64,000 nt of DNA from Candidatus Magasanikiibacteriota bacterium (GCA_016182085.1 JACOYB010000007.1:6381-70380); one strand, 5' to 3'; counted from the stretch's first letter, positions 4,999 through 62,780 are shown. Notes: a model not told the origin generated them from the sequence alone. Made by a program: numbers and translations.

Positions 4999-5916
4999 AT
5001 GCACATTCGTATTCTTGCAGGGCTTCTGCTGGTAGTGTGGTACGCGACTTCGGCAATGGCCGATGAGCCAAAGCAGGAGCGCGCGCCGCCGGAGCTGGTT
5101 GAGCCAGCGCCACACCACGATCTGTTGTGTGGGATCTATACCCGTTTGGAGTTGCTGACCGGCTTTTCGCACAGCAATACCAAGGGTGACAATAGACTCG
5201 CCTTTCGTGCCAGAGCTTGGGGGTTTGAGTGCGGTTATCAGCACGGTAATTGGAAGGTGAAGTTTTCCGAGGGTCTTCGGAGCGAAGACTACAAGTTGTC
5301 TCACTGGGATTACAGATGGATGGGGAATTTGTCTGTAGCCGCCCAGGGGTTTGAGACCTTGATCGGAGTGGGCAGGGACCTCGGAAATTGGAACCTGAAC
5401 CTCAGCAATTGGTGCCTGTTTCACCGTTGCCTGGGCGATTGGCGCCTTGGCAAAGGGAGTGTTTGGGCAGAGATTGTGAGGCAGGAGGTTGATGTAGACA
5501 CATGGCGAGTGGATTGGTTGGGATTTGCTACCCGACATAGCTTTTCTGACTTTTCCGGATTCGCCAATGATCATGTCGACCTGGGTGTTTACTTGAAATC
5601 CTGGAAGTTCAGGGTCAAGGGCGAGCTGGAAGTGAACCGGAACCTTCATCTGGGTTTGGGGTTTGAATGGGGGATTCTGCGGCCTGGCGGCAATATCATT
5701 CCTGATGATGTTGCAGAGCTGGCTTTGAAGCATAACTTCATTGACTCTGAGCGAATTCTGCAAAAGCTGCGAGAGAATATTCATCTTGTTGGGGCTACGC
5801 CGGAAGCGCGGGTTGGGGGAGAAAGATGGAGTCTCTCAACAAGGGTTCTCTGGGGTAAGTTTGGCCAAGAGGATTGGGTCTGGGGGGCAGATCTAACCGT
5901 GAAGCTTAGCTTCTAA
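4999..5916 (+). CDS. Secreted outer-membrane beta-barrel-like protein on a GC-rich island
   Basis: Signal peptide MHIRILAGLLLVVWYATSAMA/DE. Trp/aromatic-rich. C-terminus LTVKLSF with alternating hydrophobics ending in Phe. Strong SD aagggggg. Codon GC clearly above the flanking genes. Confidence 0.55.
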   Translation: MHIRILAGLLLVVWYATSAMADEPKQERAPPELVEPAPHHDLLCGIYTRLELLTGFSHSNTKGDNRLAFRARAWGFECGYQHGNWKVKFSEGLRSEDYKLSHWDYRWMGNLSVAAQGFETLIGVGRDLGNWNLNLSNWCLFHRCLGDWRLGKGSVWAEIVRQEVDVDTWRVDWLGFATRHSFSDFSGFANDHVDLGVYLKSWKFRVKGELEVNRNLHLGLGFEWGILRPGGNIIPDDVAELALKHNFIDSERILQKLRENIHLVGATPEARVGGERWSLSTRVLWGKFGQEDWVWGADLTVKLSF

Positions 5917-8816: not shown

Positions 8817-8856
8817 ATTAAAAACATTTAATTTATTTCTCTCACTCATTTCAATT

Positions 8857-9234
8857 ATGAAATCAAAAGCGTTTTGGGTTGTAATTTTTTTGGTATTGTT
8901 TGGGACAAATGTTTTGTTTGCTAGCTTGTATTTGCAGGCAAAAAAAGAACTGGAAGGCACGAAGGTGATTTTGTCTTCGCAGCAGTACCGCTCCAAGTAT
9001 ATGGATTTTCTGAAAATGTTTATTAAATTGGTAATAAAATCCGATAAAGAAGTTGATTTTGAAACTAGATTGAAACTTGAAAATGCGGTTAGGGGGCTAA
9101 AAGAAGAATATAACGATCCGGAAATTTTGGCGCAGTGGCAAAAATTTGTAAATAGCGGCAATGAAGCCGAGGCGCAAGCCAATGTAAAAGAGCTGTTGGG
9201 CATGCTGGTGGATAAGGTGTACGCGTTAAAATAA
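8857..9234 (+). CDS. Small membrane-anchored hypothetical protein
   Basis: N-terminal TM helix FWVVIFLVLFGTNVLFASLYL followed by a charged coiled region. Confidence 0.5.
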   Translation: MKSKAFWVVIFLVLFGTNVLFASLYLQAKKELEGTKVILSSQQYRSKYMDFLKMFIKLVIKSDKEVDFETRLKLENAVRGLKEEYNDPEILAQWQKFVNSGNEAEAQANVKELLGMLVDKVYALK

Positions 9235-9286: not shown

Positions 9287-12200
9287 GTGTTTATGCTAAA
9301 GTCGCAGAAACAAAAATTGTTTTCCGTCAAAGTTAACGCAGCTTCTGGCGAGAAAAAAGAAAGTAAATTTTTAAGAGGATTTTTAAAATTATCCCCGGTT
9401 TTTGTTGGCCTGATAATGGTTTTTTATTATTTTTACCCCGCTTTTGCTAGTCCGCCTTCTAGTCCTTACGCACCCGGAGAAACTACCGATCCTTCTTGTT
9501 CCCCCGGAGATACCAACTGTACTGTTTATCCGCCATTTACCACCACTCTTACCGGCACGACCGCTATTACCATGGGTACTTCTTCCATTAGGTTTGCTTA
9601 CGACTCCACTAACTATTCTTCTCTCACCGTGGCTGCAGACGGGGCACTGACCGTTAGCTCTACTAATTCCGCCACCACTACTTTTATAAATAAAATATAT
9701 TTTTTAAGCAACGCATATTTTAATACGATTGCGTCCGGCACCTGGAACGGAAGCGTGATTGGCATTGCTTATGGCGGCACCAATTCGTCCACCATCGCCG
9801 CCAATGGTTCTATAGTTTACTCCGATGGCACCAGATACAACGCTACCGAAGTTGGAACCCTTGGTTACTTACTTATGTCCGCTGGAGGAGGCAGACCGGT
9901 ATGGATAAATAGCACTACCTTAGGCACCGGTATAGTGGGAAGTGGCACCGCTGGACAATTTCCTTATTATGCCACTAATGGCACAGCCGTAGTAGGAACT
10001 TCAACTTTATTTATTACCCCAACCAGTTTAGTTGGCATCGGCACCACCACCCCTACTCAAAAATTAGCAGTCGTAGGAAATATTTCTAATATTCTGGATC
10101 CTAGCAATACATCGTCTATTTCTCAGGTTTCTACCGTTACGGTGGGAACTGTGCCGCGAGGACTTTTTGTTTCCGGTCGGTACTTATATGTGGCTAATTA
10201 TAATGATAATACAATATCTGTCGTTGATGTTTCTAACTCTTCTGCCCCTGTCCAAATAGCTACGACTTCCGTAGACACTAACCCTATCTCTACCTTTGTT
10301 TCCGGTCGGTACTTATATGTGGCTAATTATAATTCAAATACTGTTTCCGTTGTTGATATTTCTAACCCCTCTGCCCCTAGAAAACTTTCTAGTGTGGCGG
10401 TAGAGGCGCAACCAACCACAATTTACGTCTCCGGCCATTATGCCTATGTAGTAAACCATACTTCAAACACTATTTCCGTTGTTGATGTCTCCAATCCATA
10501 TACTCCCGTCCAAATAGCTACGACTTCCGTAGGCAATAGTCCCCGCTCAGTTTATGTATCCGGCCGTTATGCGTATGTGGCAAATTATCTTGGAAATACC
10601 ATGTCGGTGGTTGATGTCTCCAATCCCGCGACTCCTGTCGAGATAGCTACGGTGGCTGTGGGAGCTAACCCGCGAGGCGTATATGTATCCGGCCGCTATG
10701 CTTATGTGGCAAATTTTTCTGGAGCGACCGTATCTGTTGTTGATGTCTCCAATCCTGCTGTTCCCGTTCAGATTGCTACCGCTCCTGTGGGTACTAGCCC
10801 TATGGCCATTTATGTCTCCGGCCGCTATGCCTATGTGGCTAACTTTAGTTCAGCCAATATTTCTATCGTTGATGTTTCTAGTTCTTCAGCTCCCAGCCAC
10901 ATTGCCACGGTGCCTGTAGGCACAAATCCTTATTCTATTTTTGTTTCCGGCCGCAATGTTTATGTGGCTAATTATGGTTCAAATACAATTTCTATCGTAG
11001 ACATACCCGGCGCTGAAGTAAGCAGCCTTATCGCTCACTCTGCCGAAGTAGGCAACATTCAATCTAGAAATGATATTTTAGCTCAAGGAAATATTATGGC
11101 CGGTACTGGTTTGATGGTTGGAGCGGGAGGGATAATGTCACAAGGAGGGTTATCTATCTTTGCCTCTACAACCGGTTCCACTTCGTCTATATTTAGTATT
11201 GATTCGGCCGCCTCTTCCAGCATAATTAAAGTTTTGGCCAATGGCAGAGTTGGTATCGGCACTTCAAGTCCGCAAGCGCTTCTCAGTTTGGTAAATGACT
11301 CTAATACTCAACTTCACCTCAACAGGTCCGGCGCATCCGGGCAAACGGGTACTCTTAGAATCGGCAATCAAGCAGGTTTAATTTCAAATTCTCGTGGAGG
11401 AATTAACAACGGAGTTCTGCGTAATGATGGCGTTTTACATCTGACTCGCAATCTTGTCTATAACAGCGGAGACTGGGAATTAGAAGCAGCCGACACAGGC
11501 GGTTTATTGGAAGTTGGAGCCGAGGGTATTTCTTTATGGACTGCCGCTTCAGCTGCGGCGGGTACAAAAAACCTTGGCATTATTTTAATGGCTCGTGATG
11601 ATGGTGATCTGGTAATTCCGGCAAAAGTCGGTATCGGGGTTCCTTATAATGATTCCACAGTTACTACCCCTCTGTATGTACAAGGAAACACCTCAGAAAT
11701 TATGAGGTCAGTTCGTACTTCCACGCTTACCAATGTTGCGCCTACGGGTTTGCGTGTTGCGCACAACTCCACCAACTCCAGTCTTGCCGATGGTTTTGGA
11801 ATGGTGATGCAGTTTGCCATAGATAGCCCTTCAATCTCGGAAACGGCCATAGCCGAAATCGGCGGTGTTAGATCGGGAGGAGATACTTCGGGCGCCCTTG
11901 TGTTTAGTACTTACAACGCGGGAGTTAGCACAGAAAAATTAAGAATTACACCTTCGGGTTTAATTGGAATTAACTCCACCTCACCCATAGCCAGTTTTGC
12001 ATTACAAGGCACGAGTACGAGTAATCTTTTTGCCTTTTCATCTTCCACCGGCGCAAATTTATTGAGATTGACCACTGACGGTGGTTTAGGTTTTGGTACT
12101 ACCCCGGCTACTACCGGCGCTATTCGCCTTGAAAATAATACGGGTATTTATGCCAGAAGAGCTGATAATGCCGCCGATATTGGCTTGCTTAGTTTGAACA

Positions 12201-14212
12201 CATCAAACCAGATCGTAATTGGCGTCAACGCCAGCGCCGTATTATTAAGTACCGATTTAGGTTTTAGCACTGATAATACCTACGACATCGGCGGAGGCAC
12301 AAGAAGTCCGCGGCATATTTTTGCGCGTAGTAATATAGCTGCCGGTACCAGCACCGCGATTGCCAGATTGACAGTGCAAGGAGATGGAACAGCCAATCCT
12401 TTTTCGGTTGTCACTTCAACCGCCGCCGCTTCTTCCATGTTTACAATTTTGACAAATGGCAGAGTTGGTATTAACACATCTTCTCCCGTTGCTATGTTAG
12501 CATTACAGGGCAGTGATGGTATTAATCCTTTGGAAATAGCTTCATCTACCGGCGCCAGCATGTTTAGAATTTTAACAAATGGAAATATTGGCATTGGAAA
12601 CAGCGCTCCTCTAGGTGATTTAGAAATAGGCAGCACAGCAGAATCGCAGGGTTTATTGGGTATTACAGCTAGCACTGCCGGAACAAGCGATATTTTCTTT
12701 AATAACAGCTCACAAAATAGAGGTGTAATTCGCTATACGCACTCCAGTGACAGTATGGCTCTTTGGAGCGCGGGAAGCGAAAGAATGAGAATTTCAAGTA
12801 CCGGTTTGGTGGGCGTTGGCACTACTACGCCATTATCCAAATTAACCGTAGTCGGTTCCGGTAATAACAGTACTACGATTGCTTTTAATACTTATAGCGC
12901 CTCCGGCACTTCCACTTTCAAAATTGATGATGCCGGCAATGCCTTTTTTGCCAACGATGGTATTTATTACGAAGCGTCCAGTTCAGTTGCTTATATAAAT
13001 AGTTTAGAAACAGGTCCGTTAAATTTTGATGATAATGCCGGCATGGTAACTTGGGTTGATATGTTAGTTTCTTCCTCAGTGGCCGGAACGCCAAACAGTT
13101 ATACGGCCGCCATAAATGATAACCCAATGTTAATGATATATGCGGAAAGCAATGGTTCGGGCGGTATTGCCAATCAAACAATTTCCATAAACACCAGCAC
13201 GACTTCTACTTATAAATTGTATATAGACGCGGGCGCCAGCACCACCGCCGGTTTGGGCGTAAATGGTTTTATAAAAGCCTCCGGGTATATTGCCGGCACC
13301 ACTACTTTAGATATTGCCGAAACTTACCCATTGGATCCGGAATGCGAGGCCAATGGAAATTGCCCTACATATGGCGAAGTCGTTTGTTCCGGAGAAGACG
13401 CATCTTCTACTGTATTTATCAAAAAATGTTCCGCCGCTTATGCCGATAATATTATCGGTGTGATTTCAGAAAACCCCGGTTTTATTTTGGGAGGTTATGA
13501 TGTCAGTAATGTAAGAATAAAAGGTTTATACCCGACTTCATTTAGGCCGGTAGCTTTGGGCGGACGCGTGCCGGTTAAAGTTTCTAACGCTAATGGCGCT
13601 ATTAAAGAAGGGGATTATCTTACTTCTTCCGCCGAGCCGGGGTTAGCCGTAAAAGCCATAGAGCCGGGCAGAGTAATAGGTATTGCTTTGCAATCTGTGG
13701 AAGAAAACGCTGAAACCGGCACTGTGATAATGTTTGTAAATCCGCATTGGTCGGCCGGCAGCTTAACCGAAGAGAGTATAGGCGCTGATTTGCCGGATTT
13801 TGCCGATGTTGTATTAGATAAATTTACTTTGGCCATAAAAAATAGTTTAAGAAAATTAGGGCTAGCAATTAAAAACGGAATTGCCACGGTAAAAGAATTG
13901 TTTGCTGACAAAGTTACTACCCAGCAGCTTTGTGTCGGTAGCACTTGTGTAAACGAACAGCAGCTGCAAGATATTTTAAATAGAACAAATGTACAGCCGG
14001 CGCCTTCCAATCCGTCGCCAGTGATACCGGAAAATGAAGCCGTTAACGCCCAAACCGCCCCCACTTCTTCCGTATCTGCGCCAGAATCCGCTGTTTCTTC
14101 TACCACAAATATAGTTGAAACTGTTGTTAACGAAACCGTTTTGGATACTGCTTCTTCCACACCCGCTGTTTCCGATACTGCTGCAGGCTCCACCACCGCC
14201 GAATCGCAATAA
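9287..14212 (+). CDS. Giant (1641 aa) anchored surface protein: 7x YVTN/LVIVD-type beta-propeller repeats, then tail-fibre-like G-[RN]-[VI]-G-I-G-T-x-S-P repeats, with a Cys-containing C-terminal domain
   Basis: N-terminal TM anchor. Seven repeats of about 43 aa (e.g. VYVSGRYAYVANYLGNTMSVVDVSNPATPVEIATVAVGANPRG). Recurring …NGRVGIGTSSPQALLSL… units. SD aggag. Confidence 0.8.
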   Translation: MFMLKSQKQKLFSVKVNAASGEKKESKFLRGFLKLSPVFVGLIMVFYYFYPAFASPPSSPYAPGETTDPSCSPGDTNCTVYPPFTTTLTGTTAITMGTSSIRFAYDSTNYSSLTVAADGALTVSSTNSATTTFINKIYFLSNAYFNTIASGTWNGSVIGIAYGGTNSSTIAANGSIVYSDGTRYNATEVGTLGYLLMSAGGGRPVWINSTTLGTGIVGSGTAGQFPYYATNGTAVVGTSTLFITPTSLVGIGTTTPTQKLAVVGNISNILDPSNTSSISQVSTVTVGTVPRGLFVSGRYLYVANYNDNTISVVDVSNSSAPVQIATTSVDTNPISTFVSGRYLYVANYNSNTVSVVDISNPSAPRKLSSVAVEAQPTTIYVSGHYAYVVNHTSNTISVVDVSNPYTPVQIATTSVGNSPRSVYVSGRYAYVANYLGNTMSVVDVSNPATPVEIATVAVGANPRGVYVSGRYAYVANFSGATVSVVDVSNPAVPVQIATAPVGTSPMAIYVSGRYAYVANFSSANISIVDVSSSSAPSHIATVPVGTNPYSIFVSGRNVYVANYGSNTISIVDIPGAEVSSLIAHSAEVGNIQSRNDILAQGNIMAGTGLMVGAGGIMSQGGLSIFASTTGSTSSIFSIDSAASSSIIKVLANGRVGIGTSSPQALLSLVNDSNTQLHLNRSGASGQTGTLRIGNQAGLISNSRGGINNGVLRNDGVLHLTRNLVYNSGDWELEAADTGGLLEVGAEGISLWTAASAAAGTKNLGIILMARDDGDLVIPAKVGIGVPYNDSTVTTPLYVQGNTSEIMRSVRTSTLTNVAPTGLRVAHNSTNSSLADGFGMVMQFAIDSPSISETAIAEIGGVRSGGDTSGALVFSTYNAGVSTEKLRITPSGLIGINSTSPIASFALQGTSTSNLFAFSSSTGANLLRLTTDGGLGFGTTPATTGAIRLENNTGIYARRADNAADIGLLSLNTSNQIVIGVNASAVLLSTDLGFSTDNTYDIGGGTRSPRHIFARSNIAAGTSTAIARLTVQGDGTANPFSVVTSTAAASSMFTILTNGRVGINTSSPVAMLALQGSDGINPLEIASSTGASMFRILTNGNIGIGNSAPLGDLEIGSTAESQGLLGITASTAGTSDIFFNNSSQNRGVIRYTHSSDSMALWSAGSERMRISSTGLVGVGTTTPLSKLTVVGSGNNSTTIAFNTYSASGTSTFKIDDAGNAFFANDGIYYEASSSVAYINSLETGPLNFDDNAGMVTWVDMLVSSSVAGTPNSYTAAINDNPMLMIYAESNGSGGIANQTISINTSTTSTYKLYIDAGASTTAGLGVNGFIKASGYIAGTTTLDIAETYPLDPECEANGNCPTYGEVVCSGEDASSTVFIKKCSAAYADNIIGVISENPGFILGGYDVSNVRIKGLYPTSFRPVALGGRVPVKVSNANGAIKEGDYLTSSAEPGLAVKAIEPGRVIGIALQSVEENAETGTVIMFVNPHWSAGSLTEESIGADLPDFADVVLDKFTLAIKNSLRKLGLAIKNGIATVKELFADKVTTQQLCVGSTCVNEQQLQDILNRTNVQPAPSNPSPVIPENEAVNAQTAPTSSVSAPESAVSSTTNIVETVVNETVLDTASSTPAVSDTAAGSTTAESQ
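10150..11010 (+). repeat. Tandem ~129-bp coding repeats (7 copies) encoding the propeller blades inside the 1641-aa gene
   Basis: Nucleotide-level near-identical units (…gtttccggtcggtacttatatgtggctaattataat…) recur every ~129 bp. Confidence 0.7.
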
Positions 14213-28244: not shown

Positions 28245-28455
28245 GCTAACAAAAAAATCTTTGCCGAGCGGGAAAGATTCAAAAATATATGGGTTTTTGT
28301 TTCCTGCTCGGGACTAACCCCATATTTATGGGGCCTATATCTGAAGATCGGACTTCTCGCCCAGGGCGAGTTTACCGTTGCGGCACAGTGGAGGAATCAA
28401 ACCTCACTTCCACAGATATATTTTAGTTAAATTGTAAAGTTAGACTAGCACCTAA
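28245..28455 (-). promoter_or_regulatory. Probable cobalamin (AdoCbl) riboswitch with intrinsic-terminator expression platform, upstream of the DUF4430 gene
   Basis: Minus-strand RNA reads AGGUGCU…GGAAGUGAGGUUUGAUUCCUCCACUGUGCCGCAACGGUAAAC… This matches my recollection of the conserved GGUG…AAUCC / CCCGCAACUGUAA core. It is followed by hairpins and a CCGAGC…GCUCGG stem plus a U7 run. Confidence 0.5.
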
Positions 28456-38228: not shown

Positions 38229-39014
38229 TTATGGAAGGATCTGAGAACCTTCCCAGATGTCGTTATCTGGGTTGAAGTCATTCACGTGGGGTCGGGCTTC
38301 CAGACGCCAGTATGTGGTGGTTCCTTGGGGGAATACCTCTGGAGAAAAGAAGTACTGAATGTTGCCGATGTTGCTTGCAAGCGGCGTCGAATACGTGAAG
38401 GCGATTCCTCCGTAGATCCAAGGATTACCTGGATTGGTCCGATAACTAATCGTGGCCACACCTGGCTTTGTCAACTTGAAATCAATGTTGACAACTCGGT
38501 TATTGTTCCAGAGGAGGTAGATAGCGGTCCCACTGCGCACGAAGCGCAGCGGCGACATGTCCACGTACTGGGTGCAGGTCACGAGACTAGTCCCTCGGTC
38601 AAACATCAGCGACGGCGGAGAGGTGTTCTGGTCCAGGTCCACCACGCTAACATCGAGCCAGAAGTGGTCGTGGCATTGCACGCTGCACCAGCGGTCGCCA
38701 GGAATGAGATCCAGGGAGCATGACCACGACAGTTCCGATTGCTCCGTGCCGATGCAGTCGCCCCCCTCGCACCAGCAGTACCACGGGGTGTTCCGGCCGG
38801 CCCACTCGTAGGGCTGGCAGTAGGACGTGGGCTCTTCGGGCTCCACGCACACGCCATCGAGGCACACGCTAGTACCGGGACACTCCCCATCGGTCATGCA
38901 GACGCCGTAGTGTTCGTTGACGATCACTTCGGTATCAGTGCAGGCGGCCAGCGCGGTTATGGCATACAGGCAAAAAGCGGTCAGCAGCTTGTTCATTGTC
39001 GTGTTCTCCATCAA
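38229..39014 (-). CDS. GC-rich Cys-rich lipoprotein (probable true start MNKLL…LAAC about 18 nt inside the ORF)
   Basis: Lipobox ITALAAC. N-terminal Cys-rich module (CMTDGECPGTSVCLDGVC…). C-terminal beta-rich domain. Codon GC far above the backbone. Confidence 0.55.
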   Translation of the reverse strand: MMENTTMNKLLTAFCLYAITALAACTDTEVIVNEHYGVCMTDGECPGTSVCLDGVCVEPEEPTSYCQPYEWAGRNTPWYCWCEGGDCIGTEQSELSWSCSLDLIPGDRWCSVQCHDHFWLDVSVVDLDQNTSPPSLMFDRGTSLVTCTQYVDMSPLRFVRSGTAIYLLWNNNRVVNIDFKLTKPGVATISYRTNPGNPWIYGGIAFTYSTPLASNIGNIQYFFSPEVFPQGTTTYWRLEARPHVNDFNPDNDIWEGSQILP

Positions 39015-39216: not shown

Positions 39217-40266
39217 TTACATTTGACTATATTGTTCTTGTTCGGCCTTGGCTTCTTCCGGATCTTTGCAGTTGCCATAGTGGCAGATGTCGTCCGCGTT
39301 GCAACAATCACTATCTTCTTCGCAACCCGGCATGCACACACTTTCATCGCACACCGCCTCGCAACCACAGTCGCTATTTTTCGCGCATGTTGGCGGGAAG
39401 CACTTCTCGTAGTTACAGATTTCGTTGCCGGGGCAGTGAGAACTGTCTAGGCAATTTCCATCTTCAATTTCTTCACGAGAGTGACAGGTATCTTCGTAGT
39501 AGAAATCACCCTCGCAGCATAGTATGGGACGACCGGGGCTATAGGTGCTGCAACTATGCACTTCGTTACAAATTTCGCCGCAATCACAATCGGAATCAAA
39601 GTTGCATTCCGATTCCTGGCAGTACCCTTCTTTTACCATAAGGCCGCTGAATCTGCAGAAGTATCCAACCGGACAGTCACTGTCAGCGCAACAGCCAGGC
39701 TGGTGATCACAGCGATGGTTGATGCAATGAACTGCGCAACCTCCACCGCAATCGGCATCTGCATCGCATTCTGACTCGGTGCAGGTACCGCTAATTTCAT
39801 CACTGCTCTTATCACAAAATTCATCCGGCAGACAATCCGCATTGGCACAGCAGGAATCCGACTTGTGGCACTCGTCGTCCAAGCAGTCGTAGCCGCAACC
39901 GCAATCTTCGGCGGTGGCGCAGGTATGCTGGGTAGCATACTCGCCCCTGGAATTGTCCTCCGTACCTTCATCTAGCAAACATTTGCCACTCGCGCAGACA
40001 CTGTCCGACGGACAGTCATCATCCTTGGTGCATGTTGCAATTGCCGCGGCATTTATTGTCAAGGTGCGCGCCTTGTTTTTCTGGGCAACCGGTACTTGGC
40101 ACTGGTCGGCCGGTGAATTGTTGGATTCAACCGGAGCGCTTGGCCAAACCAGGTACGCAATTGCGAAAAACTGAATAAGCGCGATAAAAGGAAATACCCA
40201 CCCTTTCTTGTTGAACTGCATACTTCCTCCGTATAGGTAGAATACGCTAGCAAAATTGTTTGTCAA
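39217..40266 (-). CDS. GC-rich secreted protein built of tandem Cys/Asp-rich repeats (DxDC-x3-5-C-x3-5-C units); likely start MQFNKKGW…
   Basis: Signal/TM FPFIALIQFFAIAYLVWPSAP. At least ten repeats such as DDDCPSDSVCASGKC, AEDCGCGYDCLDDEC, DSDCPVGYFC, DSDCDCGEICNE, NSDCGCEAVCDESVC. Confidence 0.55.
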   Translation of the reverse strand: MTNNFASVFYLYGGSMQFNKKGWVFPFIALIQFFAIAYLVWPSAPVESNNSPADQCQVPVAQKNKARTLTINAAAIATCTKDDDCPSDSVCASGKCLLDEGTEDNSRGEYATQHTCATAEDCGCGYDCLDDECHKSDSCCANADCLPDEFCDKSSDEISGTCTESECDADADCGGGCAVHCINHRCDHQPGCCADSDCPVGYFCRFSGLMVKEGYCQESECNFDSDCDCGEICNEVHSCSTYSPGRPILCCEGDFYYEDTCHSREEIEDGNCLDSSHCPGNEICNYEKCFPPTCAKNSDCGCEAVCDESVCMPGCEEDSDCCNADDICHYGNCKDPEEAKAEQEQYSQM

Positions 40267-40433: not shown

Positions 40434-41192
40434 TCAGGTAGGTGGAGGAGCGAAGATCGTGAGATGTTCCCGCCCAACATTTTCGTAGACCGACTGTTCG
40501 GCATCCAGTGGCGACTGGCTCCAGCGGAAACCATTCACCTTGGCGTCGATCGCGATCCCACTTGGCATCACACTGGCGCTGCAGTTGGTGCAGAACAGAC
40601 GGATGTCCTCGCCACCCACGTTTCCGCTGGGCGCAAACGGCCCACTCCAGCTGTAGAGGCGGGAATACCACTGACTCGTGATGTCACCGCCGGCAATCTC
40701 CGTAAGTGGCGCGGGTTGGCCGTTGATCATCATCCGGAACGTAGGCATGAAGTTGGTCGCGCTGGCCGACGAACGCGTGCCGTAGATCTCGTACTGAATG
40801 TACATGAGCTGCGGATTGCAACCCTCCGTACCCCCGCCGACTGGTACGGCGTTGAAGTGGCGGATTTCCACTTCGGCGGCCGGCATCTTGAGCGCGGTGC
40901 TCGACGTCGGGAAAGTGAGCTCCACCTTGCAGAGGCGGTCGAGGGCGCGCTGGTAGCACACCCCGGTATCTGCCAGGCACTCGCTGCCATCGGGGCACTG
41001 GGGGCCGCCGGGATCAGCGCAGGTCACGGGCACCTCCACTTCCCGCACGCAGGCCTCGCCTTCACGCTCGGTATCGGCCGGGCAAGTGGCGGGGCCAGCA
41101 TCGGCAAACTGCATGTTGACCCCATCACCACAGCCGGTGGCCATGATGAAGAGGGTGGTCGTGATCGCGATGATGAGCCGCATGTTGGGCAT
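40434..41192 (-). CDS. GC-rich Cys-rich lipoprotein
   Basis: Lipobox LFIMATGCGD. N-terminal Cys-rich module (CPADTEREGEACV…CADPGGPQCPDGSECLADTGVC). The C-terminal domain is loosely similar to that of 38229-39014. Confidence 0.55.
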   Translation of the reverse strand: MPNMRLIIAITTTLFIMATGCGDGVNMQFADAGPATCPADTEREGEACVREVEVPVTCADPGGPQCPDGSECLADTGVCYQRALDRLCKVELTFPTSSTALKMPAAEVEIRHFNAVPVGGGTEGCNPQLMYIQYEIYGTRSSASATNFMPTFRMMINGQPAPLTEIAGGDITSQWYSRLYSWSGPFAPSGNVGGEDIRLFCTNCSASVMPSGIAIDAKVNGFRWSQSPLDAEQSVYENVGREHLTIFAPPPT

Positions 41193-56961: not shown

Positions 56962-57018
56962 ATATTAATTATATCTTAACAGTATAAGCATATAATAAAA
57001 AATATATTATGTAAACAA

Positions 57019-57093
57019 AAAACCCGTTCGCTATTCCTCCTGATTTATTTCCAGTTTTTGGGAACAAATCAGGTGTTGCGAACGGGTTTTTTC
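57019..57093. terminator. Long nested hairpin / bidirectional terminator
   Basis: aaaaaacccgttcgc…cctgatttattt…aacaaatcagg…gcgaacgggtttttt. Confidence 0.5.
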
Positions 57094-57108
57094 GCTTGGC
57101 ACCTTAGC

Positions 57109-57615
57109 TTACGAAATCACTTCGCAGATACTCGCCGGTAGAAGCATCGTACCAACAACTTCGGTAGAACTGCCCATGTAGTGCGAGCAAGCGTGAGGGC
57201 TGTGAAGCGCCAAGGCCATCAGAGCATAGGTCCTACTGAGACAGAAACAGCTCAGAAAAGGATCAAACGCGCTTGCCACCACCTCAATTTCCACTCCGAT
57301 CCACGCTTCACGGATTCCAGGCGGATCTTCTCCTGGCAGGGCGGTTACGACCTTGACTTTCTTCACTTCCGAGCAGTTGTTTTTGGACAGATAGATGGGA
57401 GAAGCACCCCACCCGAAAGTGTCCTTCCAGTGGTTGAAGACTCCGGCGGGCCTCTGTTTACCAATAGCATCCAAGAAGTCACGGCGTGCTACGATAAAGC
57501 AGTTGTCATCCTCTTGGGCCCAGAGGATCATGCCCACCAAAGAATTACACATGTCCTTGGTACAATCCCGATCTTGGGGATGGGGAGCCACGGTAATGCA
57601 AATTGCTTTGTGCAT
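57109..57615 (-). CDS. GC-rich hypothetical protein (169 aa; start MHKAICITV preceded by AAGGAGA SD)
   Basis: Strong SD gtaaggagagttgtcATG. Codon GC well above the backbone. No motif recognised. Confidence 0.5.
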   Translation of the reverse strand: MHKAICITVAPHPQDRDCTKDMCNSLVGMILWAQEDDNCFIVARRDFLDAIGKQRPAGVFNHWKDTFGWGASPIYLSKNNCSEVKKVKVVTALPGEDPPGIREAWIGVEIEVVASAFDPFLSCFCLSRTYALMALALHSPHACSHYMGSSTEVVGTMLLPASICEVIS

Positions 57616-57755
57616 GACAACTCTCCTTACAGCTGAAGTTGTAGTTAGTATAGATAGCCTATGCATTTTTGACAAGGTGTAGTTATGGCTAATTATTCAA
57701 GCTAAGCTTAAAGTTGACATATTGTTATTTTTTTTGTATACTTTTTCTACAATTT

Positions 57756-57829
57756 GGGTCGGTAGTTCAACTGGTTAGAGCACTGCCCTGTCACGGCAGA
57801 AGTTGCGGGTTCGAGTCCCGTCCGACCCG
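57756..57829 (+). tRNA. tRNA-Asp (anticodon GUC)
   Basis: Acceptor GGGTCGG/CCGACCC, D arm GTTC-AACTGGTTA-GAGC, anticodon stem CTGCC/GGCAG with loop CTGTCAC, T arm GCGGG-TTCGAGT-CCCGT, discriminator G. Confidence 0.85.
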
Positions 57830-57832
57830 CGA

Positions 57833-57860
57833 AAAAAGAAGGCGAAAGCCTTCTTTTTGC
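57833..57860 (+). terminator. Rho-independent terminator after tRNA-Asp
   Basis: aaaaagaaggc-gaaa-gccttcttttt. Confidence 0.55.
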
Positions 57861-57996
57861 GTGGGCGGAAGCGAGCAAATAGTTTTGCTCACGTCGGGGC
57901 GAGAACGCCGGAGCGATGTCGCACGACGCAGGTGGGCGAGTGCGACCGCGAGGAGGTGGCTAACCCGAACGAATGGAAGTGAGTGAGAGGTGAAGC

Positions 57997-58015
57997 CGAG
58001 TCCCGTCCGACCCGC
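57997..58015 (+). repeat. 19-nt direct repeat of the tRNA-Asp 3' end (cgagtcccgtccgacccgc), att-site-like
   Basis: Exact copy of 57812-57830, about 165 bp downstream. The intervening DNA is GC-rich and non-coding. Confidence 0.6.
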
Positions 58016-58116
58016 TCACAAAAACGTGGCTTATCCTAGCTACTTTTTGTTGCCCCTGCCTGGTGTGGTGTAGAACTTTATGATAAAGTATTGGGGGGAT
58101 TTATAAACTTGATTAT

Positions 58117-58374
58117 ATGAAGAACATTCGTCGTGGTTTGGACATACTTACCGAAGAAGCTCGATCGCGTTGCATTAAAGAAATTATCGGATATTTTCAA
58201 GATGAGCGGAACGAAACTATAGGGATAATTGCCGCTGAGGATGTGTTGGATTTTTTCTTACAAAATATAGCACCCGATGTTTATAATAAAGCTGTTGAAG
58301 ACACAAAGACCCTTCTCAAGAAACAATTGGAAGGATTAGATTTTGAACTTGATTTGTTAAAGAAACAAAAATAA
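58117..58374 (+). CDS. DUF2164-like small protein
   Basis: 85 aa. …IGIIAAEDVLDFFLQNIAPDVYNKAVEDTK… resembles the DUF2164 family as I recall it. AT-rich, host-like codon usage. Confidence 0.5.
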   Translation: MKNIRRGLDILTEEARSRCIKEIIGYFQDERNETIGIIAAEDVLDFFLQNIAPDVYNKAVEDTKTLLKKQLEGLDFELDLLKKQK

Positions 58375-58491
58375 CTGACCGCCAATAAAAACAGCTACAC
58401 CTTAAGTAGTTGTTTTTAAATATATTTATATATTGACTTTTTACTATTTTGATAGTAGAGTTTCGGCTAGTTTCCCAGAGAGGGGGTTTCA

Positions 58492-58827
58492 ATGTCGGAA
58501 ATTGAAGGGCTCATTGAGTCTTTTATGAAAGATGTGCGGACTAGCGCTTTGTCAGTGATGGCGGTAAGCATCAACTCAAAAGATGTGGAGAAGTTGTGCG
58601 AAAAGCCACGCCTGGCTTTCCCCAGTATTCTTCAGCGCTTTGAAAGGCTGAAGCCCGCAGCTAACGGAATAGGGCTTCGTATTGAAGAAGGTCATGTAGT
58701 GTTGCTGCGTCGGTTGGGAGCATGCCTCGGCGCTGCTGTGCCAGGTTATGGACTCAAGGAGCGAGGAAAGTGGCTCGGTTGGGCTCGCCAAATCCTTCAG
58801 CATATAACCCCTCGCCCCAAGAAGTAA
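58492..58827 (+). CDS. GC-rich hypothetical protein (111 aa)
   Basis: SD gagggggtttcaATG. No motif. Confidence 0.45.
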   Translation: MSEIEGLIESFMKDVRTSALSVMAVSINSKDVEKLCEKPRLAFPSILQRFERLKPAANGIGLRIEEGHVVLLRRLGACLGAAVPGYGLKERGKWLGWARQILQHITPRPKK

Positions 58828-58989
58828 GTGCTCGGATCTCGTGTGAGGGCGAGCAAAGAAAGTCACCACCACACCAATTATATTTGCACTCAGTGAAAGT
58901 ATGATTGGTTGGTGGCTTTTTTGTTTTCTTTAACCTTTGACAAAATTGTTAAAAAATGGTACCTATGTAATTAGTAAAGGAGGTTTGCA

Positions 58990-59307
58990 ATGAAAATTTT
59001 CGTTCGGCGTTGTCCGACTTTTGGCAACATTGCCTCTGGAATTCTGGATGTGCTGCGCGGTATGTGCCTCGAAGCTGATGAGCGTTCGATCATTCCCGCT
59101 CCGGAAGACAGCATCTGCAATGTGGATGCTGCTGGCGATGGCGGGTACATGGTGTCTGGCGAGGAGATGTTCAACGTGTTGTATGGCGACCGTGAGGCGG
59201 ACGATTTGATGTGGGAGCTTGCCAGGAGATTCGGTCAGTGGCGCAAGCGTATGTTTGTCTTCCATTTCGATGACGTTGCAACGCTGCCACTGCTGCCTCC
59301 CGAGTAG
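58990..59307 (+). CDS. GC-rich acidic hypothetical protein (105 aa)
   Basis: Canonical SD aaaggaggtttgcaATG. Followed by a palindromic site and a terminator (59430-59459). Confidence 0.5.
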   Translation: MKIFVRRCPTFGNIASGILDVLRGMCLEADERSIIPAPEDSICNVDAAGDGGYMVSGEEMFNVLYGDREADDLMWELARRFGQWRKRMFVFHFDDVATLPLLPPE

Positions 59308-59584
59308 ACATCAACCAGGTGCTACGGCAGAACAAAATCCTGTTCGCAACACCTGATTTGTTTCTGAAATATTCAGAACCAGGTCAGGGAGGATAGCGAG
59401 CAGGATTTTTGTTTTAGAAATAAAAAATAAGACAGCCGCTGGGCCGTCTTATTTTTGGTTACATTATAAATTTTTTGTGAATAGACACACAACGCCGAAC
59501 AAATGTCCCTTCAATTTAGTCTACACGGTACAGGTGTATGAAATTACACCCGTATTTAGGTTAAAAATATCATTTAAAAATGCG

Positions 59585-59609
59585 AAGACCCTCGAGTTTC
59601 GAGGGTCTT
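59585..59609 (-). terminator. Perfect-palindrome rho-independent terminator for the minus-strand gene 59652-60170
   Basis: aagaccctcgag-t-ttcgagggtctt, with a T-run on the minus strand. Confidence 0.6.
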
Positions 59610-59651
59610 GCTGTTCATGTGGCCGCGTGGCGGCCGGTAGAGAAGTTGTGG

Positions 59652-60170
59652 CTAGATGCTCAGTCCGGTCGGACTTGTGTCGTTGGGACTGGAACGGTTG
59701 TGTCCGGCGGGTTTGTAGTGAGGTCGGAGGTCGCGTCCGTTGGGCTTGTTGACTTGCGGCGAGCACATGCACATGGGCAGCGGAGTGGCCTGCGGTTCTT
59801 GTTGCATGATGAGCTTGTCCGGGTCATCCAGGTTCACGTAGCCGCGCGCGACAGGTGTGCCGCGCCAGGAACAAGATCCACCCTGGCTACAAATGCGGGC
59901 CTTGTAGATGATCATGGCCTCGCAGATGATACCGGACTCGGTGCAAGAGCAGTTGTTGTTCCGTACCGTCTGCAGGCCCTCCTCCGAGATCAGGAAGCCA
60001 GTAGGAGCGTTGTCCTGTTTGGGTACCGTCGGCTGGTTGACGACGCTCGTCGCCAGGGGGCTGTTGCTGTTGAAGCAGTAGCGGTAGCCGAAGATCAGAC
60101 CCAGAACCAGGAGCATGCAGATCGCGAGACCGCGAGTACTCAGACCGGGACTTGCCAGTTTTTTCTCCAT
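59652..60170 (-). CDS. GC-rich membrane-anchored Cys-rich secreted protein (172 aa)
   Basis: SD gagggggaaaaacagtcATG. N-terminal TM LAICMLLVLGLIFGY. Twelve Cys (CSCTESGIICEAM…CSQGGSCSW…CMCSP). Confidence 0.5.
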   Translation of the reverse strand: MEKKLASPGLSTRGLAICMLLVLGLIFGYRYCFNSNSPLATSVVNQPTVPKQDNAPTGFLISEEGLQTVRNNNCSCTESGIICEAMIIYKARICSQGGSCSWRGTPVARGYVNLDDPDKLIMQQEPQATPLPMCMCSPQVNKPNGRDLRPHYKPAGHNRSSPNDTSPTGLSI

Positions 60171-60236
60171 GACTGTTTTTCCCCCTCATTACCCACTTGT
60201 GGCGGGGTAGTTGCCAGCGCATGGAAACCCTCACTC

Positions 60237-60284
60237 CAACGCGCGTATCAATAATAATCAATATTATTACTCATACGCGCGTTG
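60237..60284. promoter_or_regulatory. Perfect 12-bp inverted repeat (CAACGCGCGTAT…ATACGCGCGTTG) around an AT-rich palindromic core, in the divergent promoter region between 59652-60170(-) and 60478-60807(+)
   Basis: caacgcgcgtat-caataataatcaatattattactc-atacgcgcgttg. A second 7-bp IR (atgattt…aaatcat) lies at 60368-60389. Confidence 0.4.
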
Positions 60285-60477
60285 GCTTCTCTAGTTTATA
60301 AAATGAACAGCGTAATTTAGTAGATTATCACGGTCTTTTTATGGACCATTTAATCATGTTATATAAAATGATTTAGTCAAATCATATATTTTTACACTAC
60401 CATAAAAATGTGTTTTTGTCAATCCGGGTCTTGTGCTTTTTATTTTTGATGGGTATATTGAATGAAGGAGGATCACC

Positions 60478-60807
60478 ATGACTTCAACACCCAGGAGAGA
60501 GTATCGTCCGTATGAGTTTCCCGAAGTGCTTCGCTTGCGCGAGCGCGCCAAAGGGTTAGAGTTTTCTGAACTCTTACAACAATATCTTTTTGAACGAGAT
60601 CGACTCACCAGCGAAGGTGGCGATCCGGACAATTCAAACTGTGTCTTTATCCGAGAAGATGAAGACAATCTCATGCTTAGCCGACAGTACCAGTGGTGCC
60701 AAGTACTGAAGGAAGAAATGAGCCGGCGAGGGATGCTCGCTGATATTGTTGAGAAGGGCGGGATAGTGAATGCAGAGTCCCTCTTGCGATACAAGTGTTG
60801 GTGGTAG
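60478..60807 (+). CDS. GC-rich hypothetical protein (109 aa)
   Basis: Strong SD gaaggaggatcaccATG. No motif recognised. Confidence 0.5.
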   Translation: MTSTPRREYRPYEFPEVLRLRERAKGLEFSELLQQYLFERDRLTSEGGDPDNSNCVFIREDEDNLMLSRQYQWCQVLKEEMSRRGMLADIVEKGGIVNAESLLRYKCWW

Positions 60808-61113
60808 GTGCACATGACGAAGCGCGCAAAATATTACCCTTGTAGCTTCGTCTCCGTTCCATAGCAACTTAATTATTTTAAGTTATTATGGAACGCGGAA
60901 ATGCTCAAAATACTCACGTTAACCTGACAAAAAAAGACCCAGACAATGTGTGGCAAGAGGAGAGGAAACGAAGGAGGGTACGTTTCCTCCTTATACCACA
61001 CACTGTCGGGGCCTTAAGGAGTTTTGTATATTTGTATACTACTGGTTTTTTTTATTTTGTCAAGAGTCCGACTGTGGATGATTGCTGTTTGCGCCCGTAA
61101 TGAAATGAAGGGC

Positions 61114-62382: not shown

Positions 62383-62780
62383 TGGTGGAGGTGGCGAGAG
62401 TTGAACTCGCGTGTAGATAACTTTGACTAAACCTTCTACATACTTAGTGTCTCTTGGTATTTAATCAACCCGATAAAAGAGGACGAAAATCGGATTGACG
62501 AGCCGAGTAACTTCGTTGTGCGTCAGTCGGCGCTAACACATAACTACTCTCAGTTAATGACACCGCGGATCGGTTACTGAGTATTGCCGGCGCGATGGGT
62601 AACAGGCTATTAAGCCATTACCGGAGCCAAAGCGCGGGAACCAAACAAGTTGGCTACAGCTACTTTAGCTTTTGATAACAAGTTTACACTTATTATGGCG
62701 CTCTTTGTGATTTACGAGGATCAGAGCTTCCTCGGTATGCCGGTGTAGCCAGGAATTTCTATCGAAAGCCCGGCACCCCC
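62383..62780 (-). ncRNA. ssrA: tmRNA (ssrA), one-piece, starting immediately after the smpB stop codon
   Basis: Minus strand reads 5' GGGGGUGCCGGGCUUUCGAUAG…3'. Tag ORF …GCUUUGGCUCCGGUAAUGGCUUAAUAGCCUG (…ALAPVMA**) resembles E. coli GCUUUAGCAGCUUAAUAACCUG. 3' end GCGAG-UUCAACU-CUCGC-CACCUCC-ACCA pairs with the 5' GGGGGUG. Confidence 0.8.

Follow-up and report, generated by a model that had tools for sequence, protein, structure and literature searches.

The GC-rich DNA behind the tRNA-Asp gene of a Candidatus Magasanikiibacteriota genome (GCA_016182085.1), together with the copy of the tRNA 3' end that follows it, probably forms a single RtT-like tRNA-trailer element at positions 57861-58015 on the tRNA strand. 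Positions are those of the window, meaning the whole 64,000-nt stretch that was analysed (JACOYB010000007.1:6381-70380). The element is ~155 nt long, starts 31 nt past tRNA-Asp on the same strand, and is present in the window as one unit with no tandem repetition. The 5' arm is complementary to the last third of tRNA-Asp (T stem and acceptor 3' strand), and the 3' tail repeats the tRNA in sense orientation, from C56 in the T-loop up to the base past the discriminator. Arm and tail pair, with a break at hairpin P1, into a helix resembling an acceptor/T-stem stack. The helix forms the closing stem of a three-way junction whose two arms are conserved (Table 1). The same core was found behind at least 11 tRNA identities, with arm and tail always matching the local tRNA.

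The repeated tRNA-Asp 3' end

An earlier note on this DNA had reported an exact 19-nt copy of the tRNA-Asp end beyond a GC-rich spacer, and had taken the locus for a decayed or miniature mobile element with five small ORFs as cargo. The copy is real: the 19-mer CGAGTCCCGTCCGACCCGC occurs at 57812-57830 and 57997-58015 and at no other site in the window, whereas shuffled sequences gave an expectation of 0.01 matches and none of 100 shuffles contained two. Even with as many as 3 mismatches allowed, the window contained no third, more distant copy of the tRNA-Asp end. The spacer is GC-rich as described (GC 0.57-0.60 vs ~0.41 for the backbone), and the repeats enclose 166 bp containing no ORF. The locus was 100% identical in two separate Logan run assemblies, SRR12113430 (9.3 kb) and SRR12113420 (975 bp), both probably from the study that also yielded the MAG. 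Because of this identity the repeat region is not an assembly artefact, a concern that the note itself had raised. The hairpin and U-run between tRNA and element occurred in every complete member of the tRNA-Asp lineage examined, and an inverted repeat (I8, 57826-57865) also pairs the 3' end of tRNA-Asp with the 5' arm of the element.

Table 1. Features of the tRNA-Asp locus, in window coordinates
Feature	Position	Strand	Remarks
ORF1	57109..57615	-	168 aa, GC 0.52; outside element
sigma-70-like promoter ahead of tRNA-Asp	57714..57742	+	TTGACA-17-TATACT; 11/12 consensus matches
tRNA-Asp(GTC)	57756-57829/30	+	ARAGORN; Rfam 66.8 bits
Proximal repeat copy	57812-57830	+	last 19 nt of tRNA-Asp
Terminator-like hairpin and U-run	57831..57859	+	separates tRNA-Asp from element
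5' arm, part 1	57861..57868	+	GUGGGCGG; antisense to acceptor 3' strand, discriminator and next tail base
Hairpin P1	57871..57892	+	97-99% paired; 7-9 covarying pairs
5' arm, part 2	57895..57900	+	CGGGGC; partner is tail 58000-58005
Arm 1 of three-way junction	57901..57957	+	ACGCC/GGAGGU, GGA/GA internal loop, GCG/CGC, variable hairpin P2
Arm 2 of three-way junction	57958..57997	+	GGCU/AGCC, ACC/GGU, tandem G.A pairs, hairpin P3 with GGAA loop
Tail (distal 19-mer)	57997..58015	+	exact tRNA-Asp C56 to G73 plus next C
Intrinsic-terminator-like hairpin and T-run	58026..58052	+	end of element
DUF2164 gene	58117-58374		AT-rich, host-like; amid GC-rich ORFs
ORF3	58492..58827	+	111 aa, GC 0.51, dN/dS 0.34; outside element
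ORF4	58990..59307	+	105 aa, GC 0.54, dN/dS 0.38; sole relative in sister genome
~80-nt hairpin	59330-59413		-46 kcal/mol, z -7.9
ORF5	59652..60170	-	172 aa, GC 0.59, dN/dS 0.73; membrane helix, Cys-rich
Inverted repeat	60236..60285	.	23-nt arms 91% complementary; between divergent ORF5 and ORF6; kept in sister genome
ORF6	60478..60807	+	109 aa, GC 0.49, dN/dS 0.19; sole relative in sister genome

A family of elements with a covarying fold

One metagenome scan, followed by nhmmer and a covariance model, recovered at least ~30 relatives, all in low-GC metagenome contigs. Where enough upstream sequence was available, nearly every member stood 16-80 nt 3' of a same-strand tRNA gene, and the tails copy the 3' end of their own local tRNA, starting at C56 or G57. 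Across all loci collected, a 3'-end copy was found downstream of 19 of 62 tRNAs and upstream of none of the 62. Searched against 1.2 Mb of unrelated loci, the covariance model gave not a single false hit. No Rfam family matched the element, and there was no tmRNA or YrlA hit either. The trailer reading does not account for the spread of one core, with arms to match, over such a variety of tRNA genes.

The element is 84% identical to that of a second Magasanikbacteria locus (L004) although PpsA is only 61% identical between the two, and this pair alone contains 5 compensatory pairs. The spacer is under structural constraint and is not decaying filler. Among the relatives, L004, L165, L094 and L123 carry the element, the sister genome L208 has a variant of it, and L003 and L005 (PpsA 63-66% identical) lack it. 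In a plain MAFFT alignment of the family 89.5% of cells were paired compared with 33-43% in slid controls, double-sided change was seen in 32 of 50 pairs, and none of 500 shuffles did as well. A model-fitted alignment gave 90.5% paired cells and 44 covarying pairs out of 50. The family alignment was ascertained through one exact 18-mer, so invariance across that stretch is built in. The stems contain 27 G.U and 11 A.C, plus 31 G.A, and the excess of G.U over A.C points to the tRNA strand as the one that folds; covariation by itself fits an RNA fold and folded single-stranded DNA alike.

The tRNA-derived parts of the fold change with the tRNA. Helix 1, in the window 57861-57868 with 58007-58015, shows double-sided changes in all 7 of its pairs across the family, with 60-71% of cells paired. 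The tail segment bound by the second part of the 5' arm corresponds to T-loop G59-U60 plus the 3' strand of the T stem, and both the 5' arm and this T-like helix change in step with the local tRNA, the helix with its T stem. Within the Asp lineage, tail and arm follow changes in the acceptor stem (GACCC in the window, GGUCC in L004, GCUCC in L173). The CGGGGC arm is followed by a conserved GAGAAC, the P1 loop is AAUAGUUU in the window and AACUGCUU in most members, and arm 2, whose final base (57997) is base 1 of the 19-nt repeat, has 11-13 covarying pairs. CCA is encoded in only some members. Because pairing of the 5' arm in the window extends over the discriminator and one base beyond, the 3' end there has no free NCCA, and in L129 the 5' arm, as read by eye, pairs through part of the CCA.

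A possible route to a functional RNA

The favored model is that the element is transcribed as RNA. The promoter of tRNA-Asp, presumed to drive the element as well, would be read through past the hairpin at 57831-57859, and the transcript would end at the terminator at 58026-58052. The nucleases of tRNA maturation may then trim it. The conserved two-arm domain would be the working part, and the tRNA-derived helix could be a handle for processing or stability, or a mimic of that tRNA's 3' end; either role would tie the output of the element to one tRNA gene. Members in L147, L161 and L162 lie between tRNAs inside tRNA operons and are thus presumably co-transcribed with them. The hairpin that separates tRNA-Asp from the element is itself terminator-like, which speaks against the transcription step, and read-through is assumed.

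The fold resembles the tRNA-like domains of tmRNA and YrlA in that the paired ends form an acceptor-like stem on a T-stem-like helix, the remaining RNA is inserted between those ends, and some members encode CCA. However, the T-loop of the family is replaced by a ~95-nt two-arm insertion, leaving no intact T arm, and the window arm pairs through the discriminator in place of a single-stranded NCCA 3' end. The ends of the family also copy the neighbouring tRNA, whereas those of tmRNA and YrlA are a fixed alanine- or Ro-related module.

Comparison with E. coli RtT RNA

RtT RNA (RF00391), or rttR, is encoded in the tyrT operon of E. coli (Bosl and Kersten 1991, cited in PMC3318445). Its function is described as poorly understood, and modulation of the stringent response has been proposed (10.1101/2024.07.17.603846). 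Both the RtT unit and the window element lie directly behind a tRNA gene and share its strand, and both end in the last 19 nt of that tRNA from the T-loop on, which in E. coli is AAUCCUUCCCCCACCACCA of tRNA-Tyr. In both, the outer helix joins the tail to an antisense arm that precedes it; for RtT this pairing is part of the Rfam consensus. The order of parts in the E. coli unit is antisense arm (GGGGAAGGAU), GAGAA, hairpins, GAGU and tail; the GAGAA past the arm, a CGCC/GGCG helix and a GCAGGC-loop hairpin inside, and the GAGU ahead of the tail are shared with the family. The annotated rttR of E. coli begins 8 nt past tyrV, and its 3' end coincides exactly with the first tail's CCA; for rttR this annotation supports release of a stable RNA with that end.

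The family model aligned the RtT units in register, and RtT units took two of the three top places in a search of 49 kb of E. coli DNA, at ~10 bits (E ~0.2 in those 49 kb). With a score of just ~10 bits, common descent of the family with RtT is unproven. RF00391 (gathering threshold 45 bits) in turn gave no hit at E<=10 in the window or in 13 other member loci, and it scored all three RtT units of E. coli at 134-138 bits. RtT comes as about three tandem repeats, shares sequence with the tiny tpr ORF, and is not known from sites other than behind tRNA-Tyr in enterobacteria. Members of the family, unlike RtT, are usually single-copy, have a second long arm (P4/P3) and hairpin P1, follow many tRNA species and occur in Patescibacteria-like genomes.

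Mobility and duplication as alternative origins

An alternative, unlikely but by no means negligible, is that the unit is a miniature mobile element, non-autonomous and aimed at tRNA T-loops, with the arm as a guide or as the folded single-stranded att strand. The tail would then be the att core, a recombinase encoded elsewhere would insert the unit beside or within a tRNA gene with a matching 3' end, and the observed fold would be part of the mobility machinery. The range of tRNA identities behind which the core stands fits this idea, as do two copies per contig or tandem copies in L167, L116 and L184. Nor does similarity between cores track tRNA identity, the Asp-linked core of L151 being nearest to Thr- and Tyr-linked ones. 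In the sister genome (L208), whose flanks are 91-97% identical to the window, the frame behind this tRNA-Asp encloses a different interior; the more distant L165 holds a 93% identical copy of the element. In L208, L007 and L167 the arm is antisense across the C56 junction for 11-15 contiguous nt, a span that includes the conserved GAAC without a partner in the cis tail, and in 5 members CCA is present in the distal copy but absent from the gene copy. IS110/IS1111 elements use bridge or seek RNAs, and CTX phage and integron attC use folded single-stranded DNA sites; the complement of a target beside a copy of it recalls both, as a resemblance only. In contrast to those systems, the family has no linked recombinase and no ends of a larger element, and its guide would be one continuous ~20-nt antisense arm where bridge and seek RNAs use short loop segments.

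Several observations favor a trailer RNA over such mobility. No integrase, reverse transcriptase, transposase or TnpB was found linked to the family, the 103 ORFs adjoining members gave 1 integrase-domain hit and were otherwise mostly housekeeping, and no members were found in viral contigs. The Asp lineage looks vertically inherited and selected, and no occupied/empty pair was seen between close relatives. The exchange in L208 takes in the adjacent gene and so looks like ordinary homologous replacement. Finally, tandem G.A pairs and GNRA-type loops suit RNA better than att-site DNA.

A broader proposal, which must be called quite unlikely, is that the family, counting the RtT of E. coli as a degenerate relative, constitutes a programmable insertion module that targets tRNA genes. 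If this is true, the antisense arm would read the intact sequence from T-loop to acceptor, as RNA or folded single-stranded DNA, and the copy would be placed behind the gene by host tRNA/DNA-processing enzymes or by a recombinase encoded at another locus. Such a module would explain why each member has both a complement and a copy of its own tRNA end.

A functionless, slowly decaying partial tandem tRNA duplication, made by slippage or unequal crossing-over, is very improbable: L090 does have three tandem ~79-nt partial tRNA-Arg copies and a short duplicate of a tRNA-His T arm, and tails have drifted or bear insertions in L147, L151 and L174, but a shared non-tRNA core with 32-44 covarying pairs in many tRNA contexts and distant genomes would be unexpected, and in the Asp lineage tail and arm change along with the acceptor stem of the tRNA.

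Neighbouring small ORFs and hairpins

The five small ORFs of the earlier note were recovered, with GC of 0.49-0.59 and a strong Shine-Dalgarno sequence each (AAGGAGG- or GAGGGGG-type, 6-9 nt ahead of ATG). All five regions are also present in L208, mostly under purifying selection (dN/dS 0.19-0.73). The family of ORF1 is rare (5 representatives in 1.8 billion). ORF5 is weakly constrained and has no called protein relatives; its minus frame is likelier given a GC3 of 0.76, an N-terminal membrane helix and an NCBI call on the same strand.

It is scarcely credible that these ORFs are the surviving cargo of a decayed tRNA-integrating island with the two repeats as attL and attR. T-loop-type tRNA attachment sites, as reportedly described by Williams in 2002, run from T-loop C56 to the 3' end and go with P4-type tyrosine integrases. 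That part of the proposed signature holds, since the window too has a direct repeat of the tRNA 3' end from T-loop to gene end. The ORFs are also 8-18 GC points above the backbone with few or no relatives, and the segment varies between relatives. However, the island reading is contradicted by the ORF-free DNA between the repeats, which are only 185 bp apart: all five ORFs lie outside, on both sides, and the enclosed DNA, free of cargo genes, is a conserved, covarying fold that includes antisense of the same tRNA segment. A Pfam search of the six proteins of the locus, and those six only, found no integrase domain, in agreement with the note, and one gene amid the ORFs is host-like (DUF2164). 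GC-rich ORFs are also not peculiar to this locus: five further ones are scattered in the window away from its two tRNA genes and tmRNA gene.

The five ORFs and the long hairpins are best regarded as separate from the trailer element, as fast-evolving lineage-specific genes in a recombining variable segment; no mark of the ORFs as one mobile unit was found. The stretch between the sigma factor gene and rplT carries different small ORFs in L165, and a 2-kb insertion and a replaced gene in L208. An inverted repeat had been noted at 60237-60284 with perfect 12-bp arms; it is present, but its arms are longer and imperfect (Table 1). Two palindromes placed at 59328-59390 likewise exist, not as separate sites but as inner parts of the ~80-nt hairpin, which is itself an ~80% identical copy of a hairpin at 57017-57092 behind ORF1.

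A copied tRNA end bounds a conserved fold

The genome studied here belongs to Candidatus Magasanikbacteria (NCBI proteins HYT15_04230 to HYT15_04260, 73-kb contig), as do the nearest relatives of its PpsA. As the earlier note had reported, the last 19 nt of tRNA-Asp are repeated exactly at 57997-58015 (two matches in 0 of 100 shuffles), and this stretch of the window is identical in two separate run assemblies. The GC-rich character of the DNA behind the tRNA was also borne out, with a GC content of 0.57-0.60 3' of the tRNA-Asp hairpin compared to about 0.41 in the backbone. The DNA between the two 19-mers is not decaying filler. In the Magasanikbacteria bacterium GW2011_GWC2_37_14 (L004), whose PpsA is 61% identical to that of the window, the stretch downstream of tRNA-Asp is 84% identical while the flanks cannot be aligned, and five compensatory base-pair changes are found among the differences between the two elements. 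The copy of the tRNA end in L004 tracks the acceptor sequence of that genome (CCGGUCC, compared to CCGACCC in the window). The element is absent from two further relatives (L003 and L005).

Features of the window and parts of the element fold, the latter in 5' to 3' order
Feature	Window position	Description
tRNA-Asp(GTC)	57756-57830	proximal 19-mer at 57812-57830
Hairpin with U-run (GC-rich DNA follows)	57831-57859	
RtT-like structured unit	57861-58015 (+)	parts in the next eight lines
Element 5' strand		complement of the tail's acceptor 3' strand; frequently close to tRNA positions 1-7 in sequence
Two unpaired bases		between 5' strand and hairpin P1
Hairpin P1		loop usually AACUGCUU
Strand NNGGAC		pairs with GUCCNN (T-loop bases 59-60 and T-stem 3' strand)
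GAGAAC		after NNGGAC strand, before arm 1
Arm 1		ACGCC/GGCG-GU, GGA/GA internal loop, GCG/CGC, variable hairpin, commonly with CAGCAGG closing it
Arm 2		GGCY/RGCC, 3-bp helix, tandem G.A pairs, variable hairpin
GA, then tail		3' end of element, after arm 2
ORF1	57109-57615 (-)	
ORF3	58492-58827	
ORF4	58990-59307	
ORF5	59652-60170 (-)	
ORF6	60478-60807	
Inverted repeat	60236-60285	
Long imperfect hairpins, 75-90 nt	57017-57092 (-), 58845-58934, 59330-59413, 60929-61017	behind GC-rich ORFs
Five further GC-rich ORFs	228-584, 4999-5916, 38229-39011, 39217-40221, 40434-41192	GC 0.51-0.63, compared to 0.41

In a plain MAFFT alignment of the family, 89.5% of cells were paired compared to 33-43% in slid-partner controls, both sides had changed in 32 of 50 pairs, and 0 shuffles matched any of these measures. 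The model-fitted alignment of 33 hits, which is biased toward covariance model R1, gave 90.5% paired cells and 44 of 50 pairs covarying. Covariation with the local tRNA is seen in both of the helices formed with the tail. The stems contain 27 G.U versus 11 A.C oppositions along with 31 of G.A, which suggests that the strand that folds is the tRNA strand; this bias fits an RNA, with folded single-stranded DNA also possible. The repeat is part of a conserved RtT-like structured element, and this element is rather likely to be a transcribed tRNA-trailer RNA in which a tRNA-derived helix frames a functional two-arm domain.

One family behind many tRNAs

A metagenome collection was scanned once with an 18-mer common to the window and L004, which returned at least 120 loci. 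Among the matches listed, 92 were chance pattern matches inside high-GC coding DNA and 29 were in low-GC contigs that carry the element. R1, trained on 19 members, had 33 hits among the metagenome loci listed, and in 1.2 Mb of unrelated loci it found the window and L004 only. Nearly all members with enough upstream sequence have a tRNA gene 16-80 nt upstream on the same strand; the tRNAs are Asp, Leu (five isoacceptor genes), Lys, Arg, Ser, Tyr, Asn, Thr, Gln and Glu; tRNA-His has a short partial duplicate only. Every member closes with a copy of its own tRNA's 3' portion, and the first base of that copy is in all cases C56 or G57 of the T-loop. Across all loci examined, a 3'-end copy lies within 450 nt downstream of 19 of 62 tRNAs and upstream of none, although the manner in which the loci were collected enriches this sample; L004 and the tRNA-Lys locus L007 came from an independent protein-based search.

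In L116 (1-300 and 756-4062), one complete and one truncated element lie in tandem just 5' of a 23S rRNA gene, where group I intron-like hits were also obtained. In L090, the first ~700 nt of the reverse strand contain three tandem partial copies (~79 nt) of tRNA-Arg(TCT) with the T-loop altered to UUGUUU, a change also present in the short duplicate of the tRNA-His T arm there. These partial copies are a simpler tRNA-end duplication on a contig that also carries a full element.

The tail-pairing strand goes beyond a T-stem half, and in some members it complements the whole T-loop. In the sister genome (L208) CGGGACUCGAAC is complementary to GUUCGAGUCCCG over 12 nt, and the arms of L007 and L167 (tRNA-Glu) are complementary to the T-loop region over 15 and 11 nt, respectively. 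In L150, which lacks P1, a 13-nt run (CUCAGGAGAGGAC) extends through the T stem and acceptor, and together with the following GAGAAC about 19 of 21 positions are complementary (partly read by eye). Elements of the class present in the window are mismatched (GA/GA) at G57-A58. The conserved GAAC is partnerless in the element's own tail and could pair with G53-C56 of any tRNA. Pairing of the arm includes the discriminator and next base in the window and part of the CCA in L129, another member, and therefore the 3' end is not a free NCCA.

In five members (L112, L120, L162, L174 and L178), CCA follows the distal copy but not the tRNA gene, and the reverse case was not seen, a pattern judged against few other tRNA genes from those five genomes. 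The distal CCA is possibly selected as an encoded CCA, inherited from a mature tRNA, or a sign that the gene originally ended at the distal copy. The five cases suggest, but do not prove, a reverse-transcribed mature tRNA, as the gene may originally have encoded CCA.

Likeness to RtT

At both the gathering score and E<=10, Rfam searches of this DNA, including one confined to the element (211 nt searched), found tRNA and no family on the element. Searching the literature brought up neither a structured RNA next to tRNA genes in Patescibacteria nor the 15-mer. The closest likeness is to the E. coli tyrT operon, which contains 178-bp repeats that include the last 19 nt of the tRNA. There, the RtT unit begins with a spacer, GGGGAAGGAU antisense to AUCCUUCCCC, and GAGAAGC, continues through a stretch like the tRNA's T arm and CGCC ... 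GUUGCC-GCA-GGCAAC ... GGCG, and ends with a short hairpin, GAGU and the tail AAUCCUUCCCCCACCACCA. The arm-tail pairing is also part of Rfam's RtT model (RF00391), and the annotated E. coli rttR RNA runs from 8 nt past tyrV to the CCA of the tail. R1 aligns in register with the E. coli RtT units, albeit weakly (~10 bits, E ~0.2 in 49 kb). In those 49 kb, RtT units were two of the three best hits and tyrT-trailer segments four of the 20 best. Because of the shared layout and the in-register alignment, the window element is built like RtT and would work likewise. It is outside RF00391 by Rfam's criterion, and common ancestry with RtT is unproven.

Since 1981-1991, RtT has stood as an unexplained peculiarity of a single E. 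coli operon. Published accounts describe RtT as taking part in processing of the tyrT transcript and possibly in the stringent response (10.1101/2024.07.17.603846; Bosl and Kersten 1991 via PMC3318445). If the element is of the RtT type, then an antisense arm, a structured core and a tRNA-end tail would be a widespread design rather than an accident of tyrT, occurring after many kinds of tRNA gene in uncultured bacteria with small genomes and under clear structural selection. Through helices that covary, conserved bases at the junction and two or more interior classes, it would give a comparative handle on the function of RtT-type RNA. It also raises the question of how a single RNA core is adapted to acceptor and T stems from a dozen different tRNAs.

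The tyrT-tyrV spacer (L209/L210; E. coli NC_000913 1287329-1287537) was the fifth-best R1 hit in the 49 kb (8.1 bits, correct strand) and may be a degenerate RtT-like unit.

Several other identities were weighed. None of SRP, 6S, RNase P and 5S rRNA was adopted; the likeness to E. coli 5S (GAAACGCCGUAGCG versus GAGAACGCCGGAGCG) is local and lies within a variable helix of 5S, and the two differ in topology. A group I intron does not fit, as tRNA-Asp is intact and the element has no Intron_gpI hit; published cases of such introns in Patescibacteria tRNAs lie at position 35/36 in the anticodon loop (PMC13011429). Integron cassettes, as modules of an ORF and a long hairpin, were also rejected: by eye, the hairpin ends lack RYYYAAC/GTTRRRY core sites, the six local proteins include no integrase, and the ORFs have their own promoters and run in both directions.

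Interior exchange and possible mobility

An unlikely alternative to a trailer RNA is a miniature mobile element that targets tRNAs. In L165, a more distant relative, the tRNA-plus-element block is 93% identical while the surrounding DNA is otherwise unalignable, and similarity of the core follows tRNA identity only partly. The sister genome L208 (GCA_964619625.1; flanks 91-97% identical; rplT, infC and smpB 94-97%) has the same frame at tRNA-Asp as the window (5' arm, P1, GGGAC...GUCCC, tail GUCCGACCCGC), with an interior that differs from the window's yet also folds as a three-way junction. This second interior class is also found in L007, 3' of tRNA-Lys. The block replaced in L208 corresponds to window 57908-58378, from the element's GAAC to where the next gene ends, and this swap could be ordinary homologous replacement. 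Pfam searches of 103 neighbouring ORFs, one of which has an integrase domain, found no recombinase, reverse transcriptase or TnpB-like gene linked to the element and no linked protein partner, only unrelated and mostly housekeeping families. A viral origin was rejected, as 18-mer hits in viral contigs were chance matches in high-GC phage genes.

Small weight is given to an island remnant, the reading in the earlier note, which took the 19-nt repeats as attachment sites and the small ORFs as cargo; for the ORFs this reading is not supported. The absence of an integrase noted there was confirmed by Pfam in the six local proteins. The repeats enclose only 166 bp with no ORF, and the presence of GC-rich ORFs at five other places in the window shows that high GC is a trait of this genome's lineage-specific genes and does not mark one island. 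In genome annotation, a tRNA 3' end that recurs as a short direct repeat should not on its own be read as a sign of an integrated island. A functionless duplication is likewise given small weight beside the covarying stems.

Other differences were seen in L208. Its class 2 interior at tRNA-Asp (8747-8905) has no Rfam hit and contains GAGGAAAGUCC and AGGGUGAAA, identical to the two conserved strings for which bacterial RNase P RNA is best known, in reversed order. At 8413-8643, a 100-N assembly gap, a second copy of the tRNA-Asp promoter with the first 8 nt of the tRNA, and a 76-nt GC-rich insert lie ahead of the actual tRNA, reflecting either a scaffolding error or a further small insertion at the tRNA 5' end. 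A 2-kb insertion (10420-12443, relative to window 59467/59476) carries a 609-aa gene (weak DUF5666), and an unrelated 110-aa AT-rich ORF replaces the window's DUF2164 gene (58117-58374). Divergence from the window is mosaic, with nucleotide identities of 79% for ppsA, 69% for the sigma factor, 96% for ORF1 and 97% for smpB.

Neighbouring small genes and hairpins

The five small ORFs with Shine-Dalgarno sequences and the inverted repeat were found as described in the earlier note. The ORFs had no hits in Pfam or PHROGs and no paralogy among them. All five regions are intact in L208, where dN/dS was 0.49 for ORF1, 0.34 for ORF3, 0.38 for ORF4, 0.73 for ORF5 and 0.19 for ORF6, compared to 0.04-0.09 for rplT, infC and smpB. 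By these ratios, four of them (ORF1, ORF3, ORF4 and ORF6) are genuine genes whose constraint is relaxed, and ORF5 is doubtful. ORF1 belongs to a rare family (5 representatives in 1.8 billion) with apparent tandem paralogues in L165, and has a confident but unmatched predicted fold. The only relative of ORF4 and of ORF6 is in the sister genome. ORF3 has no cluster-mate at 90% identity (DNA 74% identical in L208), and ORF5 has no called protein relative (DNA 93% conserved in L208). The small ORFs in the corresponding interval of L165 are mostly different from the window's.

The four long hairpins are more conserved than the ORFs they terminate (78-88% in L165, 87-94% in L208). Those at 57017-57092 and 59330-59413 are ~80% identical copies with compensatory changes, and the hairpins serve as terminators at the least. 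Several of the five further GC-rich ORFs are Cys-rich with signal-peptide-like N termini. The window also contains an ordinary AdoCbl riboswitch (28280-28438, minus strand, 54 bits) and an ordinary standard tmRNA (62383-62780, minus strand) with the tag VANLFGSRALAPVMA.
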